From IMG/VR virus record IMGVR_UViG_2695420814_000008: a DNA stretch of 14,088 nt; one strand, given 5' to 3'. This document shows positions 467 to 12,532 of this stretch, one piece after another; within the stretch, counting starts at the first letter, position 1; each line of letters starts with the position of its first letter. A program made the position numbers and the translations under genes. A model generated the notes under the pieces. It worked only from the letters and a program-made list of their open reading frames with translations. It did no database searches and had not been told where the DNA came from. The stretch is from a virus (Duplodnaviria > Heunggongvirae > Uroviricota > Caudoviricetes).

Positions 467-802
467 ATGAAGTGGATTGTGATTGATACAGTTATCCAGC
501 CATCATGCGGAATATCTTTTTCAGTCATATGGAGTAAAATAAAATTAATAATCTGGTATCAATCGGATGCTTTCTTACCTCCTGAAAGTATATTTACACT
601 GACTCACACAGGCATCATGCTCAATAACAAAGTGCTACCTGTAACCATTTACAACGTAGTACCATTCAATAAAACATTCTGGAATTCAATCAAAAATAGC
701 CAGGAATGCCCTACAAATACAGATAACGTATTGAATGAATGCTTTAATAACCGTTGCACTCTGCAAATATGTCCTTATGGACTAAAACAACAAAGTCCAT
801 AA
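467..802 (+). CDS. Hypothetical 111-aa protein in AT-rich DNA, C-terminal third Cys-rich; no family recognised
   Basis: ORF track; AAGGAAA about 7 nt upstream of ATG; long open frame in a block visibly AT-rich where stops are frequent by chance; followed by a strong hairpin at 837-858. Confidence 0.35.
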
Positions 803-836
803 GGAGTTTACTCACATCTGACAAAATCAATATAAA

Positions 837-858
837 CAGCCCCTCCGGAGAGGGGCTG
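837..858 (-). terminator. Perfect 9-bp GC-rich stem-loop (CAGCCCCTC-CGGA-GAGGGGCTG); U-tract only on the minus-strand reading
   Basis: Inverted repeat read directly; on the minus strand it is followed by TTTATATTGATTTT, on the plus strand it lacks a T-run. Confidence 0.4.
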
Positions 859-1249
859 GAGAGTGGCGCTATGTGCCATTGCATGGTGCCGGGTGCCTCC
901 CGGTGAATTCAGTACCAGCACCTGAATCCGCGATTATCCCATATACCTACTCGCTGATTGCCCCTCCGCACAGGGGGATTCACCATGCCAGTTTCTTTTA
1001 ACAAACTCCCCGCAAACCAGACAACAGTCAACCGCCTGAATTGTGAAGTATTTAAAAATTTCTCCCGCTAACTGATACCCGGCTAACAGTCTGGCGTTTT
1101 CTTTTTCAGCAACGGGAAAGCAACAACCACCACACCCGCCACCAGCACACCGTCAGCCAGCACTGACATTATCCGGCTGCTGCAATGCCATTCACAAAAA
1201 CAGTAAGCAATCACTTTTTACCGTAACAGGTGATAATCCAGATATGTAT

Positions 1250-1713: not shown

Positions 1714-1790
1714 TGGCGCGCTGTACTGGATTCGAACCAGTGACCGATTGCTTAGAAGGCAATTGCTCTGTCCGGCTGAGCTAACAACGC
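1714..1790 (-). tRNA. tRNA-Arg, anticodon UCU (phage-type, argN-like)
   Basis: RC reads GCGTTGTTAGCTCAGCCGGACAGAGCAATTGCCTTCTAAGCAATCGGTCACTGGTTCGAATCCAGTACAGCGCGCCA: 7-bp acceptor stem (one G-U), GCTCAG D-arm, anticodon stem ATTGC/GCAAT with loop CTTCTAA, GGTTCGAATCC T-arm, encoded CCA. Confidence 0.85.
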
Positions 1791-1890: not shown

Positions 1891-1966
1891 TGGTGGCCCT
1901 TGCTGGATTTGAACCAGCGACCTGGCGATTATGAGTCGCTCGCTCTCACCACTGAGCTAAAGGGCC
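1891..1966 (-). tRNA. tRNA with CAU anticodon, most similar to tRNA-Ile2 (ileX/ileZ type, lysidine-modified) rather than tRNA-Met
   Basis: RC reads GGCCCTTTAGCTCAGTGGTGAGAGCGAGCGACTCATAATCGCCAGGTCGCTGGTTCAAATCCAGCAAGGGCCACCA: 7-bp acceptor stem, anticodon loop CTCATAA, T-arm GGTTCAAATCC, encoded CCA; overall close to remembered E. coli ileX. Confidence 0.8.
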
Positions 1967-2007
1967 GGGAGCAGAATAATAACGGTCCGTAATTAATTCC
2001 GCAATAA

Positions 2008-2034
2008 AAAACCCGCTCGGCGGCGGGTTGTAGA
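2008..2034 (-). terminator. Rho-independent terminator about 35 nt downstream of the Q-like gene (candidate tR'-type site or plain operon terminator)
   Basis: Plus strand AATAAAAAA-AACCCGC-TCGGCG-GCGGGTT; on the minus strand a 7-bp GC-rich stem is followed by UUUUUUAUU. Confidence 0.6.
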
Positions 2035-2068
2035 AACTCTTCTAACGTCAGGCATAAAACGCCCATAG

Positions 2069-2923
2069 TTATGACGAATTTACCACAGATTCCGGAAAAA
2101 TCAACCTAGTTACCTTTTTTAACTGCCGCTCAGCCCATGCTTCTTCAATATCAAACCGAGTCACCAGCGCATCATAGAATTTCTTAACTGTTTTTTCCCA
2201 TGACGCGCGTGTTATCTGGTTTGTCACCTCGCATATAGCATTAAATGCCTCCGTTGATGGTAGTCTTTCATAGCCACGACCACCACAACGCTGGCAGTCT
2301 CTGATAACAGGCATACCACGTTTTACCGACTCTTCACGATGAATGGCGACACCACGCCCACGGCAATCCTTACAGGCGGTGGAAACCTCACCCTTTCCGC
2401 CACACTCCGGACAGGCAACTTTTACCACCTCCCTGACTTTTTTCCATTCTTCCCAGTAAGACGGATACACACCTTTCGTACACTTTGCCCATACCGGCGG
2501 CTTACCATCCGGATACTGGACCTTGTTTGTAAAAACTACGCTTTCAATAAATTTTTCCCCATAGCAACAAGGGCACTGCTTTTTACTCGCTGCGCTGCGG
2601 GCATAATCCTCAAAAGCGTACGAAGCCATAATGCGCATCACTACCGGTTTTATTTCTGCCGGAAGTTTTCTCAACGCCGCCACACGATCGCACCGACTGA
2701 GTGCATAATCTGCCAGTAATTCTGTTGCCCGCGCCCTGTCATTCATACTGATGCCCATTTTCCCCAGGAACGCAGAAAACCCCATCTCAGCCCGATTCTG
2801 TGTCATGCCCTGCGCGGCCATCACATCAGTGATACTCAGCGCATCTTTTGACGTTGAGGCCGATGCATCGGTCAGGCAAGGGGATTTTGGGGAGTAGTAT
2901 TTCGGTAAATCTTCCAGTTTCAT
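2069..2923 (-). CDS. Lambdoid late-region regulator, putative Q-like antiterminator, carrying four DnaJ-type zinc-finger repeats (CPCCYGEKF, CPECGGKGE, CKDCRGRGV, CQRCGGRGY)
   Basis: 284-aa ORF; start ATG overlaps the rusA stop (ATGA); immediately downstream of rusA and upstream of a terminator and phage tRNAs, the canonical Q slot. Product assignment is by position plus motifs, not by recognised sequence identity. Confidence 0.55.
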   Translation of the reverse strand: MKLEDLPKYYSPKSPCLTDASASTSKDALSITDVMAAQGMTQNRAEMGFSAFLGKMGISMNDRARATELLADYALSRCDRVAALRKLPAEIKPVVMRIMASYAFEDYARSAASKKQCPCCYGEKFIESVVFTNKVQYPDGKPPVWAKCTKGVYPSYWEEWKKVREVVKVACPECGGKGEVSTACKDCRGRGVAIHREESVKRGMPVIRDCQRCGGRGYERLPSTEAFNAICEVTNQITRASWEKTVKKFYDALVTRFDIEEAWAERQLKKVTRLIFPESVVNSS

Positions 2924-3294
2924 TTTTTGACCTGCTCTTCATGCATTATGGGGTAAATCTTCACCCCCAGACGTCCACCAGATACTGGCTGACCACGAAC
3001 GATATTGATTTCATCAAACTGCTCATCGTCCATTAACACTCCCGCATGTGTCAGTGCATCCAGTGGTGCTTTCAGGATATTGTCCAGGTCACGACGGCGC
3101 TTATCCGGTGGCTCTGCAATAATCTTTATCGCCAGTCTTCCGGACAGGCTTAATTTCAGTCGCTGCTGACGGACAATAAGCGCCACATCCCGGCGATAAC
3201 GCTCACCGGCTTTTGATACAAAATATGTGTTGTCACGACGTCGCCAGTAAGTATTCACCGTCGGCGGATAAGGTAAAATAAACTCATGGCGCAT
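2920..3294 (-). CDS. rusA: RusA-family Holliday-junction resolvase (prophage crossover junction endodeoxyribonuclease)
   Basis: 124-aa ORF with ...PPDKRRRDLDNILKAPLDALTHAGVLMDDEQ..., matching the RusA catalytic-core motif (D-RRRDLDN) as remembered from E. coli RusA; typical nin-region location. Confidence 0.85.
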   Translation of the reverse strand: MRHEFILPYPPTVNTYWRRRDNTYFVSKAGERYRRDVALIVRQQRLKLSLSGRLAIKIIAEPPDKRRRDLDNILKAPLDALTHAGVLMDDEQFDEINIVRGQPVSGGRLGVKIYPIMHEEQVKK

Positions 3295-3551
3295 CAGCGC
3301 AGCACCTCCTGCACCAGTTTTTCAAACTTTCCGACTCTGGTTTCCAGCTCTGCCACACAGTCCACCAGCTCATCTACTGCTTTCTGTGCGCGATGCTTCG
3401 CCTGCATCAGTTCCCGAAGCGCGGGTACCATATCTTTACGGATAGCGTCTTTTGTTATGCCCGTTTTTTCGAGTTGTTCAGCATGACGCAGCATTTCCTG
3501 CGCGTGTTTACGCAATTGTTCAGGGGTAAAAGTCATTGTCTGGTTGTTCAA
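3294..3551 (-). CDS. Small hypothetical nin-region protein (85 aa from TTG at 3551; alternative ATG at 3536), predicted helical
   Basis: ORF track; stop overlaps rusA start by 1 nt (TGATG); GGAG 9 nt upstream of the TTG. Confidence 0.5.
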   Translation of the reverse strand: MNNQTMTFTPEQLRKHAQEMLRHAEQLEKTGITKDAIRKDMVPALRELMQAKHRAQKAVDELVDCVAELETRVGKFEKLVQEVLR

Positions 3552-3885: not shown

Positions 3886-4890
<1,005 letters not shown>

Positions 4891-5946
4891 AGAAAAGGGC
4901 TCGGTACTCCTGGTTCCCGCACGGTGGCTGAACTGGAATCTGAAATTCTGCAACTGCGTAAGGCGTTAAATGAAGCTCGCCTTGAGCGAGATATATTAAA
5001 AAAAGCAACAGCGTATTTTGCACAGGAGTCGCTGAAAAATACGCGTTAATCGAACAATGGCGACAACAATTTCCCATTGAAGCGATGTGTCAGGTATTTG
5101 GTGTATCCAGGAGCGGTTATTACAACTGGGTACAGCATGAACCCTCAGACAGAAAACAAAGTGATGAGCGGCTAAAACTGGAGATTAAGGTGGCACATAT
5201 CCGCACTCGCGAAACATATGGAACCCGGCGGCTCCAGACGGAGCTGGCAGAGAATGGCATCATCGTTGGTCGTGACCGACTGGCACGTCTTCGTAAGGAG
5301 CTAAGGCTACGCTGTAAGCAGAAACGCAAGTTCAGAGCGACTACGAACTCGAACCACAATCTGCCAGTTGCGCCAAATCTGCTGAACCAGACGTTCGCTC
5401 CTACAGCACCAAATCAGGTCTGGGTGGCGGACCTGACGTATGTTGCCACACAGGAGGGATGGTTGTACCTCGCTGGCATCAAAGATGTTTATACGTGCGA
5501 AATTGTCGGCTACGCCATGGGAGAGCGCATGACAAAAGAGCTGACAGGTAAAGCCCTGTTTATGGCGCTCAGGAGCCAGCGCCCACCTGCCGGGCTAATC
5601 CACCACTCTGATCGAGGTTCACAGTACTGCGCATACGATTACCGGGTCATACAGGAGCAGTCTGGTCTGAAAACATCAATGTCGCGTAAAGGTAACTGTT
5701 ACGACAACGCTCCGATGGAAAGCTTCTGGGGAACGCTGAAAAATGAGAGCCTGAGCCACTATCGTTTTAATAACCGGGATGAAGCCATCTCAGTAATACG
5801 GGAATACATTGAGATTTTCTACAATCGTCAGCGTCGTCACTCTCGTCTGGGGAATATCTCCCCGGCAGCCTTCAGGGAAAAATATCATCAGATGGCTGCT
5901 TAAAAAAAGAACAAATGGTAGTGTCCGCTATTGCCAGTACACCTCA
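4891..5946 (+). mobile_element. IS3-family (IS600-like) element lacking roughly its first 200 bp: orfA 3' part (4891..5049), slippery A-run, orfB, right end
   Basis: orfA frame reads ...RKGLGTPGSRTVAELESEILQLRKALNEARLERDILKKATAYFAQESLKNTR*; orfB product has the DDE-integrase core; 3' end identical to 1..79. Confidence 0.8.
5085..5903 (+). CDS. IS3-family orfB DDE transposase domain (probably made as an OrfAB fusion by -1 frameshift at the A-run 4998-5005)
   Basis: 272-aa ORF with ...WVADLTYV..., HSDRGSQY, ...[14 protein letters not shown]... (D, D, E core); orfB frame is open back across the A7G slippery run and is -1 relative to orfA. Confidence 0.85.
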
Positions 5947-5947
5947 G

Positions 5948-6313
5948 ATGATTGATGTCTTAGGGCCGGAGAAACGCAGACGGCGTACCACACAGGAAAA
6001 GATCGCAATTGTTCAGCAGAGCTTTGAACCGGGGATGACGGTCTCCCTCGTTGCCCGGCAACATGGTGTAGCAGCCAGCCAGTTATTTCTCTGGCGTAAG
6101 CAATACCAGGAAGGAAGTCTTACTGCTGTCGCCGCCGGAGAACAGGTTGTTCCTGCCTCTGAACTTGCTGCCGCCATGAAGCAGATTAAAGAACTCCAGC
6201 GCCTGCTCGGCAAGAAAACGATGGAAAATGAACTCCTCAAAGAAGCCGTTGAATATGGACGGGCAAAAAAGTGGATAGCGCACGCGCCCTTATTGCCCGG
6301 GGATGGGGAGTAA
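5948..6313 (+). CDS. insC: IS2 OrfA (InsC), HTH transposase N-terminal protein
   Basis: [41 protein letters not shown]...; the track ORF starts at an upstream in-frame ATG (5915) that lies in IS600-like sequence; slippery A AAA AAG at 6265-6271. Confidence 0.9.
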
Positions 6314-7176
6314 GCTTAGTCAGCCGTTGTCTCCGGGTGTCGCGTGCGCAGTTGCACGTCATTCTCAGACGAACCGATGACTGGATGGATGGCCGCCGCA
6401 GTCGTCACACTGATGATACGGATGTGCTTCTCCGTATACACCATGTTATCGGAGAGCTGCCCACGTATGGTTATCGTCGGGTATGGGCGCTGCTTCGCAG
6501 ACAGGCAGAACTTGATGGTATGCCTGCGATCAATGCCAAACGTGTTTACCGGATCATGCGCCAGAATGCGCTGTTGCTTGAGCGAAAACCTGCTGTACCG
6601 CCATCGAAACGGGCACATACAGGCAGAGTGGCCGTGAAAGAAAGCAATCAGCGATGGTGCTCTGACGGGTTCGAGTTCTGCTGTGATAACGGAGAGAGAC
6701 TGCGTGTCACGTTCGCGCTGGACTGCTGTGATCGTGAGGCACTGCACTGGGCGGTGACTACCGGCGGCTTCAACAGTGAAACAGTACAGGACGTCATGCT
6801 GGGAGCGGTGGAACGCCGCTTCGGCAACGATCTTCCGTCGTCTCCAGTGGAGTGGCTGACGGATAATGGTTCATGCTACCGGGCTAATGAAACACGCCAG
6901 TTCGCCCGGATGTTGGGACTTGAACCGAAGAACACGGCGGTGCGGAGTCCGGAGAGTAACGGAATAGCAGAGAGCTTCGTGAAAACGATAAAGCGTGACT
7001 ACATCAGTATCATGCCCAAACCAGACGGGTTAACGGCAGCAAAGAACCTTGCAGAGGCGTTCGAGCATTATAACGAATGGCATCCGCATAGTGCGCTGGG
7101 TTATCGCTCGCCACGGGAATATCTGCGGCAGCGGGCTTGTAATGGGTTAAGTGATAACAGATGTCTGGAAATATAG
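6271..7176 (+). CDS. insD: IS2 OrfB (InsD), DDE transposase catalytic protein, 301 aa
   Basis: ORF track; -1 frame relative to insC; sequence matches remembered InsD. Confidence 0.9.
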
Positions 7177-7187
7177 GGGCAAATCCA

Positions 7188-8752
<1,565 letters not shown>

Positions 8753-8811
8753 CGAAAGTATTTAGCGGGCATGAAAATGGCAAATAACGGTCAAACATCG
8801 TGGCGTTGACA

Positions 8812-9218
8812 ACAGTACAGGACGTCATGCTGGGAGCGGTGGAACGCCGCTTCGGCAACGATCTTCCGTCGTCTCCAGTGGAGTGGCTGACGGATAATGG
8901 TTCATGCTACCGGGCTAATGAAACACGCCAGTTCGCCCGGATGTTGGGACTTGAACCGAAGAACACGGCGGTGCGGAGTCCGGAGAGTAACGGAATAGCA
9001 GAGAGCTTCGTGAAAACGATAAAGCGTGACTACATCAGTATCATGCCCAAACCAGACGGGTTAACGGCAGCAAAGAACCTTGCAGAGGCGTTCGAGCATT
9101 ATAACGAATGGCATCCGCATAGTGCGCTGGGTTATCGCTCGCCACGGGAATATCTGCGGCAGCGGGCTTGTAATGGGTTAAGTGATAACAGATGTCTGGA
9201 AATATAGGGGCAAATCCA
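8812..9218 (+). mobile_element. insD: IS2 3' fragment (last ~407 bp: InsD C-terminal 132 codons plus right terminal repeat), a second copy of 6781-7187
   Basis: Direct identity to 6781-7187 by inspection, including the terminal GGGGCAAATCCA; the track ORF 8800..9207 is this insD fragment with a spurious start. Confidence 0.85.
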
Positions 9219-9498: not shown

Positions 9499-10584
9499 CT
9501 ACTGATACTGGATGCTTGAATGTTTCATCCCTGCTGCGGAAAAGGGCAATATCCAGGGCCAGATATATTCACCGTTCATATTTCTGCATTTCTGTACAAT
9601 TTCCTCAGAAAGTGTCTTGTCAATTCTTTTCCACAGGTGCTCCTGCTGTCTTAAAATACTTTCGCATATTTCGAAATCATCTTCCTGAATCAGCATTTCG
9701 GCGCATTTAATGATTTCTGATCGTTCATGCAGCACGGAGGAATGGTTATAGAGCCAGTTTACAAACAGCAATGCTTCCGGATATTGTCCCCATAATGGTG
9801 AGTATGTTGCATAGTAATCTTCTGCCGTATCCAGAGAGCCGGAGAAGTCATGCCACACAGCAAGTGGAAATGGATGCAGATTTCCGCACAGCATTTCTGC
9901 GATGTAAGTGTTTGTGGCAAAGCCATGGCGAAAAGCTGTGGCGGCCTTAACATGTTCCCCGTTCAGAAAATGCAGGAGACCGAGTTCATACCAGTAAGGT
10001 GAAAATTCATCAGCATGCTCTTTCAGTACACTGAAGGCTCGCTCATGATCGCCGGTGCGTAACAGCTCTGAACCCAACAACCAGCGAGCCCCCTGATTAT
10101 CTTCAGGATTGTATGCCAGTATTTTATCAGTGAGCATAACCGCATCCTGATGGCGCTGTAAGTGCACATTTGCGAGAATTGCTGCATAAAGCGCGCGCAG
10201 ATAAGGCCGGTTTTCGGGATGCATCCAGATTATTTCACCACAGAAACTTTCCGGGATGATACGATTACCTGCCGCCAGTCCTTTAAGAGAGGCGTTCAGT
10301 GCCTTACGCGGGGCATTCTGTTCCAGAAATGCATATGCCAGATGAGCGTGTATATCAATAAAGTCCGGCTCCCGTTGAGCAAGGCGTCGGAGTTTGTTGA
10401 TGTAACTCGTCTCGCTGATTTCATCAGCGTCGTATGCATCAAGCACTTCTTCAAACTCCCCCAGCAATGGGCCAAACCAGGTATCCGGAAATACGAAATA
10501 ACCCTTGTTATCGTGCACTTCAAAGCATAATCTATCGTTCATTTCTGAGCCTGTAAAACATGTGGTGATATAGTCTGAGAGCAT
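9499..10584 (-). CDS. Hypothetical island cargo protein, ~361 aa from first ATG (374 aa if the GTG at 10623 is used; another ATG at 10542); alpha-helical, possibly TPR-like; no catalytic motif recognised
   Basis: Long ORF in track (9499..10623); same orientation as and immediately downstream of int; flanked on both sides by AT-rich DNA. No start candidate has a good SD, so the start is uncertain. Confidence 0.6.
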   Translation of the reverse strand: MLSDYITTCFTGSEMNDRLCFEVHDNKGYFVFPDTWFGPLLGEFEEVLDAYDADEISETSYINKLRRLAQREPDFIDIHAHLAYAFLEQNAPRKALNASLKGLAAGNRIIPESFCGEIIWMHPENRPYLRALYAAILANVHLQRHQDAVMLTDKILAYNPEDNQGARWLLGSELLRTGDHERAFSVLKEHADEFSPYWYELGLLHFLNGEHVKAATAFRHGFATNTYIAEMLCGNLHPFPLAVWHDFSGSLDTAEDYYATYSPLWGQYPEALLFVNWLYNHSSVLHERSEIIKCAEMLIQEDDFEICESILRQQEHLWKRIDKTLSEEIVQKCRNMNGEYIWPWILPFSAAGMKHSSIQYQ

Positions 10585-10871
10585 AAAAGTTGAGATTCTG
10601 TGTATCAAGTCCTGTCTTGGCACCGAATGAATATTGCTTACGAAGCCCCTTCATGCTTTCCTTGAGAACAATAATTTTATCTTTATGTGAATCTCATTTT
10701 TTATAATGATGTCAGATGATTGAAATGCTAAATTATATCTGAATCAACTTTTCCTTTGCTAAAGGTATCGAAATAACTGCAAGGCTGTATTTTGTAATTG
10801 CCAATTTAAAAATGTCAATTTGTTTTTAATTATGTTTTTGTAATAAGTTTGAAGACGCAAAAAAAATAATA

Positions 10872-10953: not shown

Positions 10954-12138
10954 TTAACTTTCCCGGCTGGAGAGTGAATCAATGTAATCAGCGTACCATT
11001 GCATCATTTCACGGCGGCCATCGAGATACAGGGCATGATTATAGGTACCCCTGATGGAATTTTTATCCACATGAGCTAACTGCATTTCAATCCAGGCGGA
11101 ATTAAAGCCTTGTTCATGCAGAATTGTACTCATGGTGTGTCTGAAACCGTGCCCTGTGAGTCTTCCCTTATATCCAAGTAATTCAATTACTTGGTTAATG
11201 CTTTCCTTACTAATTGGTTTGCGGGGATCATTTCTACCGATAAAGACTAGGGGATGATGTTTTGAGATTGGTTCAAGCTGCTTAAATAGCATAATGACCT
11301 GCTCAGAGAGCGGCACAATATGAGGTCGCTTCATCTTCATTACTTCTGCCGGGATCTCCCACAATTTTGTCTCAAAATCGATATCTTCCCAGCGTGCAAA
11401 ACGCAGTTCTTGTGTTCGTACGCCGGTTAACATAATGATCTGAGTAGCTGTCTTAGTGATTATACTTCCGGTATAACCCGCCAGATCGTTGAGGAAGTGG
11501 GGAAGTTCATTAGCAGTAAGAAAGGGAAAATGTACTTTTTTCGGTGTAGCTAAAGCACTGGCAAGATCGGGGGCTGGGTTATAGTCTGCCCGGCCAGTAA
11601 CAATTGCATAGCGGAACACCTCACCACAGCGCTGGCGGACCTTGCGCATTTTCTCCAGAGCTCCACGTTTTTCCATTTTACGCAGTGCTTCCAGTAACTC
11701 CATTGGTTTGATTTCGGCAATAGGGCGCTTGCCAATGTAGGGAAAAATGTCTTTTTCAAAGGTATCAATGATTTCATCACGATAGCGTAATGACCACCGA
11801 TCAGCTTTTGACTGGTGCCATTCGCGAGCAATAGCCTCGAACGTATTTTTCAGACTCATTTGCTGCGCGATTTTTTCTTCCTTTTTTGCCTCCCCTGGAT
11901 CGCCTCCAGCAGCGAGGAGTTTCCTGGCTTCACTGCGTTTCTCGCGAGCATCGGCTAGCGTTACATCGGGGTATACGCCAATAGAAAGCATCTTTTCTTT
12001 ACCAGCAAAGCGGTACTTCATGCGCCAGTATTTAGAACCATTAGTGTTAATCAGTAGATACATACCGCCGCCATCAGCAAGCTTATAGGGTTTGTCTTTG
12101 GGTTTTGCGGTTTTCACTTTGATATCGGTTAATGCCAT
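10954..12138 (-). CDS. int: P4-family tyrosine integrase (394 aa), apparently intact
   Basis: N-terminus MALTDIKVKTAKPKDKPYKL... typical of tRNA-associated P4-like integrases; catalytic-region motifs ...TGVRTQELRFARWEDID..., GHGFRHTMST (HxxR), ...RGTYNHALY (Tyr); strong SD GGAGG 5 nt upstream of ATG; sits beside the 3' end of selC. Confidence 0.9.
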   Translation of the reverse strand: MALTDIKVKTAKPKDKPYKLADGGGMYLLINTNGSKYWRMKYRFAGKEKMLSIGVYPDVTLADAREKRSEARKLLAAGGDPGEAKKEEKIAQQMSLKNTFEAIAREWHQSKADRWSLRYRDEIIDTFEKDIFPYIGKRPIAEIKPMELLEALRKMEKRGALEKMRKVRQRCGEVFRYAIVTGRADYNPAPDLASALATPKKVHFPFLTANELPHFLNDLAGYTGSIITKTATQIIMLTGVRTQELRFARWEDIDFETKLWEIPAEVMKMKRPHIVPLSEQVIMLFKQLEPISKHHPLVFIGRNDPRKPISKESINQVIELLGYKGRLTGHGFRHTMSTILHEQGFNSAWIEMQLAHVDKNSIRGTYNHALYLDGRREMMQWYADYIDSLSSRES

Positions 12139-12437: not shown

Positions 12438-12532
12438 TGGCGGAAGATCACAGGAGTCGAACCTGCCCGGGACCGCTGGCGGCCCCAACTGGATTTGAAG
12501 TCCAGCCGCCTCACCGGAGACGACGATCTTCC
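12438..12532 (-). tRNA. selC: tRNA-Sec (selenocysteine, anticodon UCA), 95 nt including encoded CCA
   Basis: RC reads GGAAGATCGTCGTCTCCGGTGAGGCGGCTGGACTTCAAATCCAGTTGGGGCCGCCAGCGGTCCCGGGCAGGTTCGACTCCTGTGATCTTCCGCCA, the E. coli selC sequence as remembered, with the long extra arm and 8-bp acceptor stem typical of tRNA-Sec. Confidence 0.95.

Follow-up and report, generated by a model that had tools for sequence, protein, structure and literature searches.

A lambda-family Q protein with four cysteine motifs and its late promoter region in a Shigella prophage

In lambdoid phages, rusA usually lies immediately upstream of Q, and a gene in that slot raises the question of whether it encodes an antiterminator. 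Such a gene, found on a 14,088-nucleotide stretch of tailed-phage DNA (IMG/VR virus record IMGVR_UViG_2695420814_000008; the whole stretch is called the window here), encodes a protein with four cysteine motifs. A first-pass annotation had read it as a late-region regulator, with an antiterminator call made on synteny, or else as an unusual zinc-finger protein embedded in a regulatory slot. We asked which of these descriptions fits, what the cysteine motifs contribute, and in what state the gene and its prophage are. The gene and its neighbours are as follows:

2069–2923, minus strand: Q antiterminator gene (Q-lambda family, long-arm form), an open reading frame of 284 amino acids plus stop
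2920–3294, minus strand: rusA (Holliday-junction resolvase), just upstream of Q, from profile matches and gene order
1891–1966, minus strand: tRNA with CAT anticodon (tRNA-Ile in the E. coli 042 annotation), the first gene past the terminator
1714–1790, minus strand: tRNA-Arg (TCT anticodon), the second gene past the terminator

The ATG of the Q reading frame overlaps the stop codon of rusA (ATGA). With rusA on one side and a lambda/P22-like late promoter, pause element and terminator on the other, the gene does sit in the Q position. The corresponding segment of E. coli 042 is 98% identical to the window, and the order there is DUF968, rusA, Q, tRNA-Ile, tRNA-Arg, DUF3927, DUF1737, holin, lysozyme, lysis protein and terminase. 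Two further features were observed in the late region. A match to the STnc100 sRNA family of Rfam (828–1017, minus strand; 132 bits against a cut-off of 47) lies past Q and the tRNA genes and overlaps a terminator-like hairpin at 858–837. On the opposite strand, a 111-amino acid open reading frame (467–802, plus strand) is named 'anti-adapter protein IraM' in E. coli 042, and its counterpart in the Shigella loci has a PmrD-family Pfam match.

Family membership and domain layout of the protein

With Pfam PF03589 (Antiterm), which is equated with the Q-lambda family (PMC9388147), the window protein scored 183.6 bits (E = 7e-55), the cut-off being 26.7; it also matched PHROG 127 ("anti-termination protein Q-like") at E = 1e-110. 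With the window protein as the query, the best match among solved structures was lambda Q (7UBM; E = 1.8e-40), and the alignment falls into two collinear blocks, in which query residues 1–113 correspond to lambda Q residues 1–113 and query residues 182–273 to lambda Q residues 116–207. An AlphaFold model of the protein (75 sequences; pLDDT 78) matched lambda Q in the NusA-containing loading complex in a Foldseek search (7UBN_Q; E = 1.4e-13, TM 0.72). By sequence and by model, the window protein is clearly a member of the lambda Q family. Two of the checks that had been proposed for the antiterminator call, an HMM search against the phage Q families and structure prediction, returned PF03589 far above threshold and the lambda Q fold, respectively; the call is borne out by the profile score, the end-to-end alignment, the fold and the genomic context and does not rest on synteny alone. 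Homology to a non-regulatory family in place of a Q-family match, which the first-pass annotation had allowed for, is contradicted by the PF03589 score. The antiterminators Q21 and Q82 do the same job at the same genome position as lambda Q (PMC9388147), Q21 being a functional analogue of lambda Q rather than a homologue and Q82 a third family without obvious sequence similarity (PMC9388147); neither Q21 (PF06530) nor Q82 (PF06323) gave a Pfam match to the window protein, even at E up to 1. The protein is also a known, annotated member of a known family: its exact 284-amino acid sequence already bears the name "MULTISPECIES: antitermination protein [Shigella]" and occurs on at least 1000 contigs, and without its last 11 residues it is 98.9% identical to Q of phage mEp460.

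Aligned with lambda Q, the gene divides into six segments:

2744–2923, minus strand: residues 1–60, equivalent to the N-terminal segment of lambda Q (lambda Q alignment)
2585–2743, minus strand: residues 61–113, first half of the helical 'body' (lambda alignment and model)
2381–2584, minus strand: residues 114–181, an insertion absent from lambda and P22 Q that holds motifs 1 and 2 (alignment and model)
2270–2380, minus strand: residues 182–218, equivalent to the zinc-ribbon 'arm' of lambda Q (lambda alignment)
2105–2269, minus strand: residues 219–273, second half of the body, with a helix-turn-helix and the C-terminal helix, ending in VTR like lambda Q
2072–2104, minus strand: 11-residue tail LIFPESVVNSS, in the Shigella copy only (comparison with E. 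coli 042)

The cysteine motifs within these segments are:

Motif 1: CPCCYGEK, starting at residue 117 (cysteines C117/C119/C120)
Motif 2: CPECGGKG, starting at residue 171 (C171/C174)
Motif 3: CKDCRGRG, starting at residue 184 (C184/C187)
Motif 4: CQRCGGRG, starting at residue 210 (C210/C213)

The N-terminal segment, body, two-motif arm and VTR end of lambda Q (PDB 4MO1, 7UBJ–7UBN; PF03589) and of P22 gp23 are collinear with the window protein, which shares the lambda Q fold at 40% identity. Unlike lambda and P22 Q, the window protein carries 68 inserted residues, between lambda positions 113 and 116, with two extra cysteine motifs; unlike lambda Q, it also ends in the 11-residue tail. The N-terminal segment of lambda Q, itself disordered, refolds together with NusA to form a 'nozzle' inside the RNA-exit channel (PMC9388147); in the model of the window protein, pLDDT is low at residues 12–27. 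Motifs 3 and 4 (C184/C187 and C210/C213) align with the lambda zinc ligands C118/C121/C144/C147, and lambda Q has CxxCxGxG motifs of its own there (CRDCHGTG and CGRCKGVG). Residues 114–152 of lambda Q form the zinc-ribbon arm, which binds positions 11–13 of the Q binding element, touches sigma region 4 and swings by ~75 degrees on DNA binding, while residues 110–112, 117 and 122–126 contact the beta' zinc-binding domain (PMC9388147). For motifs 3 and 4, this homology bears out the earlier suggestion of a zinc module that contacts RNA polymerase or DNA.

The description of the protein as carrying four CxxCxGxG repeats needs one amendment: three of the four motifs have the exact pattern, whereas motif 1 is CxxCxG only, with K replacing the last G (in most homologues, motif 1 reads CxCCxGxG). 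The four motifs themselves are real. Shuffled versions of the protein held on average 0.03 CxxCxG matches and none of 20,000 shuffles reached four; therefore, the motifs are not an effect of composition. Moreover, C171, C174, C184, C187, C210 and C213 are invariant in 75/75 aligned homologues, and C117 and C120 are kept in 74 of the 75.

Late promoter, pause element and terminator

The elements immediately downstream of Q are:

2077–2104, minus strand: late promoter pR', from the register match to lambda/P22 pR' and annotated P22 features
2104–2099, minus strand: -35 element TTGATT
2098–2083, minus strand: 16-nt spacer TTTCCGGAATCTGTGG, the presumed Q binding element
2085–2077, minus strand: extended -10 element TGG+TAAATT (TAAATT at 2082–2077)
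2062–2070, minus strand: sigma-dependent pause element AACTATGGG, six bases after TAAATT
2004–2029, minus strand: intrinsic terminator, the tR' equivalent (hairpin 2029–2010, T run to ~2004)

The late promoter was placed by alignment with lambda and with the annotated features of P22, and a generic promoter scan of the window did not list it. For the comparison with other phages we used named phage records; the viral contigs scanned with the family alignment yielded only near-identical loci (93% identity or more), which were of no use for this purpose. In lambda and P22 the layout is TTGACT, 17 nt, TAAATT, six bases and AACGATGGG, and the window has the gene position of these phages and the same succession of promoter, AACGAT-type pause element and terminator, although its promoter spacer differs from that of lambda (16 nt vs 17). 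The pause element reads AACGATGGG in E. coli 042 as in lambda and P22, and its core is AACTAT in the window, AACGAT in strain 042 and AATGAT in mEp460. The P22 record annotates the late promoter, the qut site and the +1 position at the first A of AACGAT, with the late terminator 30–58 nt beyond +1, a distance similar to that of the terminator in the window. By analogy, the transcript is presumed to start near 2070 and would, unless Q acts, end as a leader RNA of ~67 nt. The terminator, which the first-pass annotation had located at 2008–2034, has a stem of 7 bp, five of them G-C, closed by a 6-nt loop and followed by a T run, and the match of the whole layout to lambda and P22 supports its earlier reading as the target of Q.

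The spacer core TTTCCnGAA-CTG is shared by the window and its close long-form relatives (mEp237 and the Erwinia phage) and is unlike that of lambda, which, at the level of sequence, fits the spacer as a candidate Q binding site. In the leader RNA only the terminator hairpin stands out; the leader as a whole folded no better than shuffled sequence (z = -0.56). In lambda and P22, the gene contains an antisense promoter box of the CII/C1 type (TTGC-N6-TTGC). We found none inside the window Q gene, and matches to this box across the window were fewer than expected by chance.

The long form, its insertion and the likeness to DnaJ

The four-motif protein is not the unusual zinc-finger protein that it had seemed, as E. 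coli K-12 and many phages have Q proteins that share its motifs. QuuQ/YdfT of the K-12 Qin prophage (250 amino acids) is 40% identical to the window protein and has the same four motifs, which are also present in Q of mEp237, Stx2c-converting phages, mEp010 and an Erwinia phage; in ES18 gp73 and in the Q proteins of Salmonella phage FSL SP-016, a Yersinia phage and a Klebsiella phage the motifs are arranged alike, except that motif 3 is CxC. QuuQ/YdfT and the Q proteins of ES18, mEp237, the Stx2c phages and FSL SP-016 are 34–54% identical to the window protein, and a lambda-like promoter, AACGATGGG and a terminator follow their genes. The FSL SP-016 record already cites a DnaJ-class zinc-finger COG for its Q protein. 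Closest are mEp460 Q and a 273-amino acid E. coli prophage 'antitermination protein' (WP_000762891.1, strain 042), both 98–99% identical to the window protein and encoded at loci with the same neighbours, promoter, terminator and tRNA genes. Among 40 phage matches sampled at even steps from 249 ranked records, about half were long and half of lambda length. Among representatives of 50%-identity clusters, three to four CxxC motifs were present in 24 of the 27 proteins of 240–300 amino acids, and only two proteins (205–210 amino acids) were clearly of the lambda-type two-motif form. By these sequence counts, the long form is common and makes up most of the sequence diversity of the Q-lambda family, and the four-motif arm is a common family trait.

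Three database entries deserve comment in passing. The mEp460 record (L089, 1568–2617) gives the name 'Phage antitermination protein Q' to the DUF968/YdfU-like gene upstream of rusA as well, which looks like an annotation error. Of the homologues, P0001 (337 amino acids) contains an internal repeat of the insertion region and in P0008 (253 amino acids, named for Shigella sonnei 53G) two stretches diverge out of frame; damage to copies of the same gene, or errors of assembly, may account for both.

In the alignment with lambda Q (PMC9388147), the insertion falls at the hinge of the arm and at the contact patch for the beta' zinc-binding domain. It is modelled as a long beta hairpin (strands 125–136 and 159–170), which motif 1 immediately precedes and motif 2 immediately follows; the loop that joins the strands is modelled at lower confidence. 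Among homologues, the insertion ranges from ~35 to 72 residues, with a variable loop and conserved knuckles and flanking strands. Two compact four-motif relatives, P0141 and P0154 (233–234 amino acids; motif starts 118/132/145/171), lack the long hairpin, have motifs 1 and 2 just 14 residues apart and may represent a minimal form of the second zinc site. From the lambda homology (motifs 3 and 4) and the strand layout of the model, we infer two tandem zinc sites, 1+2 and 3+4, of which the first would hold a second zinc that clamps the long beta hairpin; together they would form an enlarged arm resembling the DnaJ cysteine-rich domain. Because the insertion is placed among the hinge and beta'-contact residues of lambda Q, it most likely stiffens or extends the beta' contact. 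We also considered the insertion as a duplicate of the arm and rejected this, as profile–profile alignment joined the two over only nine columns at one knuckle (17% probability). In the literature searched, nothing relevant was found on QuuQ/YdfT, on mEp460 or on a second zinc site in Q proteins.

The motifs had been called DnaJ-type, and it is the resemblance that holds, not membership. DnaJ_CXXCXGXG (PF00684) matched residues 171–218 over profile positions 1–52 of 65 at 29.2 bits (E = 1.2e-6), below the Pfam cut-off of 32.7, and the TIGR02349 DnaJ profile reached 28 bits against a cut-off of 377 (E = 1.3e-6). A model of residues 108–225 alone was weak (pLDDT 65) and matched DnaJ cysteine-rich domains. 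We consider the resemblance real but modest and covering motifs 2–4. In the DnaJ cysteine-rich domain (PF00684; 1EXK) the pairing is nested (1+4 and 2+3), in contrast to the tandem pairing proposed for the window protein, and motif 1 of the latter comes from the N-terminal side, opposite to the fourth repeat of DnaJ. This domain and anti-TRAP (2BX9) were compared with the window protein as resemblances only. One might go further and regard the protein as a DnaJ-like zinc-finger (co-)chaperone that sits by chance in the Q position, given the two profile E values, the match of the module-only model, one homologue (P0033) named 'chaperone protein DnaJ' and one phage record that cites COG0484. However, the DnaJ profile matches remain under their curated cut-offs and within residues 163–218, neither a J domain nor the DnaJ C-terminal substrate-binding domain was among the Pfam matches listed at E up to 1, and the remainder of the protein is collinear with lambda Q. 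A chaperone is therefore rejected at the level of sequence and fold, and we consider it extremely improbable.

A different proposal accepts the Q identity and concerns only the insertion, which would be no passive brace but a regulatory or partner-binding module (for NusA, the beta' zinc-binding domain or upstream DNA) that changes the loading requirements relative to lambda Q, or a switch that responds to redox state or zinc, a behaviour of which the DnaJ cysteine-rich domain is capable. The location between beta'-contacting residues and at the arm hinge, the conservation of the insertion cysteines and strand residues while loop length varies, and the spacer core shared beside close long-form Q genes and unlike that of lambda would all suit a module of this kind; yet the proposal is built by analogy, differing spacers are expected for any diverged pair of Q proteins, and lambda and P22 Q function without the insertion. 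On balance, we think it rather unlikely. Equally tentative, and to our minds also unlikely, is the broader conjecture that a two-zinc DnaJ-like arm is the norm in the Q-lambda family and possibly its older condition, that the lambda ribbon was cut down from it, and that the extra hairpin alters the loading of Q onto RNA polymerase; if true, such a change could come, for instance, from an arm held at a fixed angle, from a further contact to beta', to NusA or to DNA, or from a changed dependence on NusA.

In the explanation that we favour, the window protein is very probably a late-gene antiterminator of the Q-lambda family that acts like lambda Q, with an enlarged two-zinc arm. By homology to lambda Q, its binding site would lie in the spacer of the late promoter that follows its gene, and there it would meet RNA polymerase paused by sigma at the AACTAT element. 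Motifs 3 and 4 would serve as the zinc-ribbon arm, whose lambda counterpart makes contact with the DNA site, with sigma region 4 and with the beta' zinc-binding domain, and motifs 1 and 2 would hold their zinc and hairpin at the base of this arm. The N-terminal 60 residues would fold with NusA into the nozzle in the RNA-exit channel, and the polymerase would then ignore the terminator at 2029–2004 and read into the two tRNA genes and the remaining late region. Antitermination, antipausing and NusA dependence are thus predicted functions of the window protein, and so, for this genome, is its activity.

State of the Shigella copy and its prophage

The length of 284 amino acids, noted in the first-pass annotation, is that of an open reading frame that is indeed present; the usual length among relatives is 273. 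Relative to E. coli 042, 8 bp (AGGTAACA) are missing from the window in the region 2072–2108, where two AGGTAAC-like repeats flank the gap. This deletion removes the TAA stop codon, so that the frame runs through the promoter to a TAA at 2071–2069 and gains LIFPESVVNSS, whereas Q of mEp460 and of strain 042 ends at VTR. The 11 added codons are the late promoter itself, from -35 to +1. Because the last 12 residues of lambda Q refold and its residues L202 and T206 contact the flap-tip helix (PMC9388147), the tail could, by analogy, matter for function. Apart from the tail, alignment revealed three substitutions relative to mEp460 Q. The exact 284-amino acid protein is common in Shigella sonnei.

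On the other side of rusA, the DUF968 gene is cut to 85 codons (3294–3551), and an IS21-family element abuts the prophage at about 3886; in Shigella genomes with the exact protein, an IS element follows DUF1737. The prophage around Q is an IS-truncated remnant. The first 4.9 kb of the window are 99.9% identical to those Shigella genomes, and past 4894 the arrangement of IS elements differs. The nest of IS elements at 3886–9218 contains inverted copies of an IS21-family IstB (3886–4686, minus strand; 7952–8752, plus strand), an IS3-family transposase (5085–5903) and a further IS3-family element (HTH_Tnp_1 reading frame 5915–6313 and integrase-core reading frame 6271–7176, with a partial repeat at 8800–9207). 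Farther on, a tRNA-Sec gene (12438–12532) adjoins a tyrosine integrase (10954–12138) and a 374-amino acid TPR protein (9499–10623); the segment 9499–12532 looks like an island inserted at tRNA-Sec and joined to the prophage remnant through IS elements.

With the 11-residue tail and the IS-truncated prophage, the Shigella Q may be weakened or have little left to regulate. Carried further, this would make the gene a relic here, its allele inactive or irrelevant through the extended C-terminus and through the loss from the prophage of the promoters that express Q and of the late genes under Q; such a reading concerns the functional state of the gene and not its identity, and it is compatible with a lambda-type Q. 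It gains from the loss of the stop codon at a C-terminus that is functionally important in lambda Q, from the IS element and DUF968 truncation on one side and the IS element after DUF1737 on the other, and from the out-of-frame 253-amino acid homologue (P0008) with which S. sonnei 53G is credited. Against it, the reading frame is intact with just the three substitutions outside the tail; the core of the switch downstream (promoter, pause element and terminator) and both tRNA genes have survived intact and differ little from E. coli 042; and the allele is carried on at least 1000 contigs, though perhaps merely by clonal descent. We regard a relic as quite possible, if somewhat short of probable. 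In S. sonnei, the two tRNA genes are the only intact genes recognised immediately behind the terminator and would offer a simple read-out of whether function remains.

For the window, the gene is best described as an ordinary Q of the lambda type, accompanied by a promoter, pause site and terminator of its own, rather than as an odd zinc-finger protein in a borrowed slot. For the family, lambda and P22 Q, on which work has centred, appear to be the minority short form, while the extra knuckle pair of the long form, seemingly unexamined, sits on a surface that is important in the lambda Q loading complex. The role of the extra zinc hairpin is a reasonable small question for research on Q proteins and not a surprise. 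Stx phages have their stx genes beyond Q and under the late promoter (PMC6266700); because Stx2c-converting phages carry the long form, the properties of this Q may bear on toxin expression.
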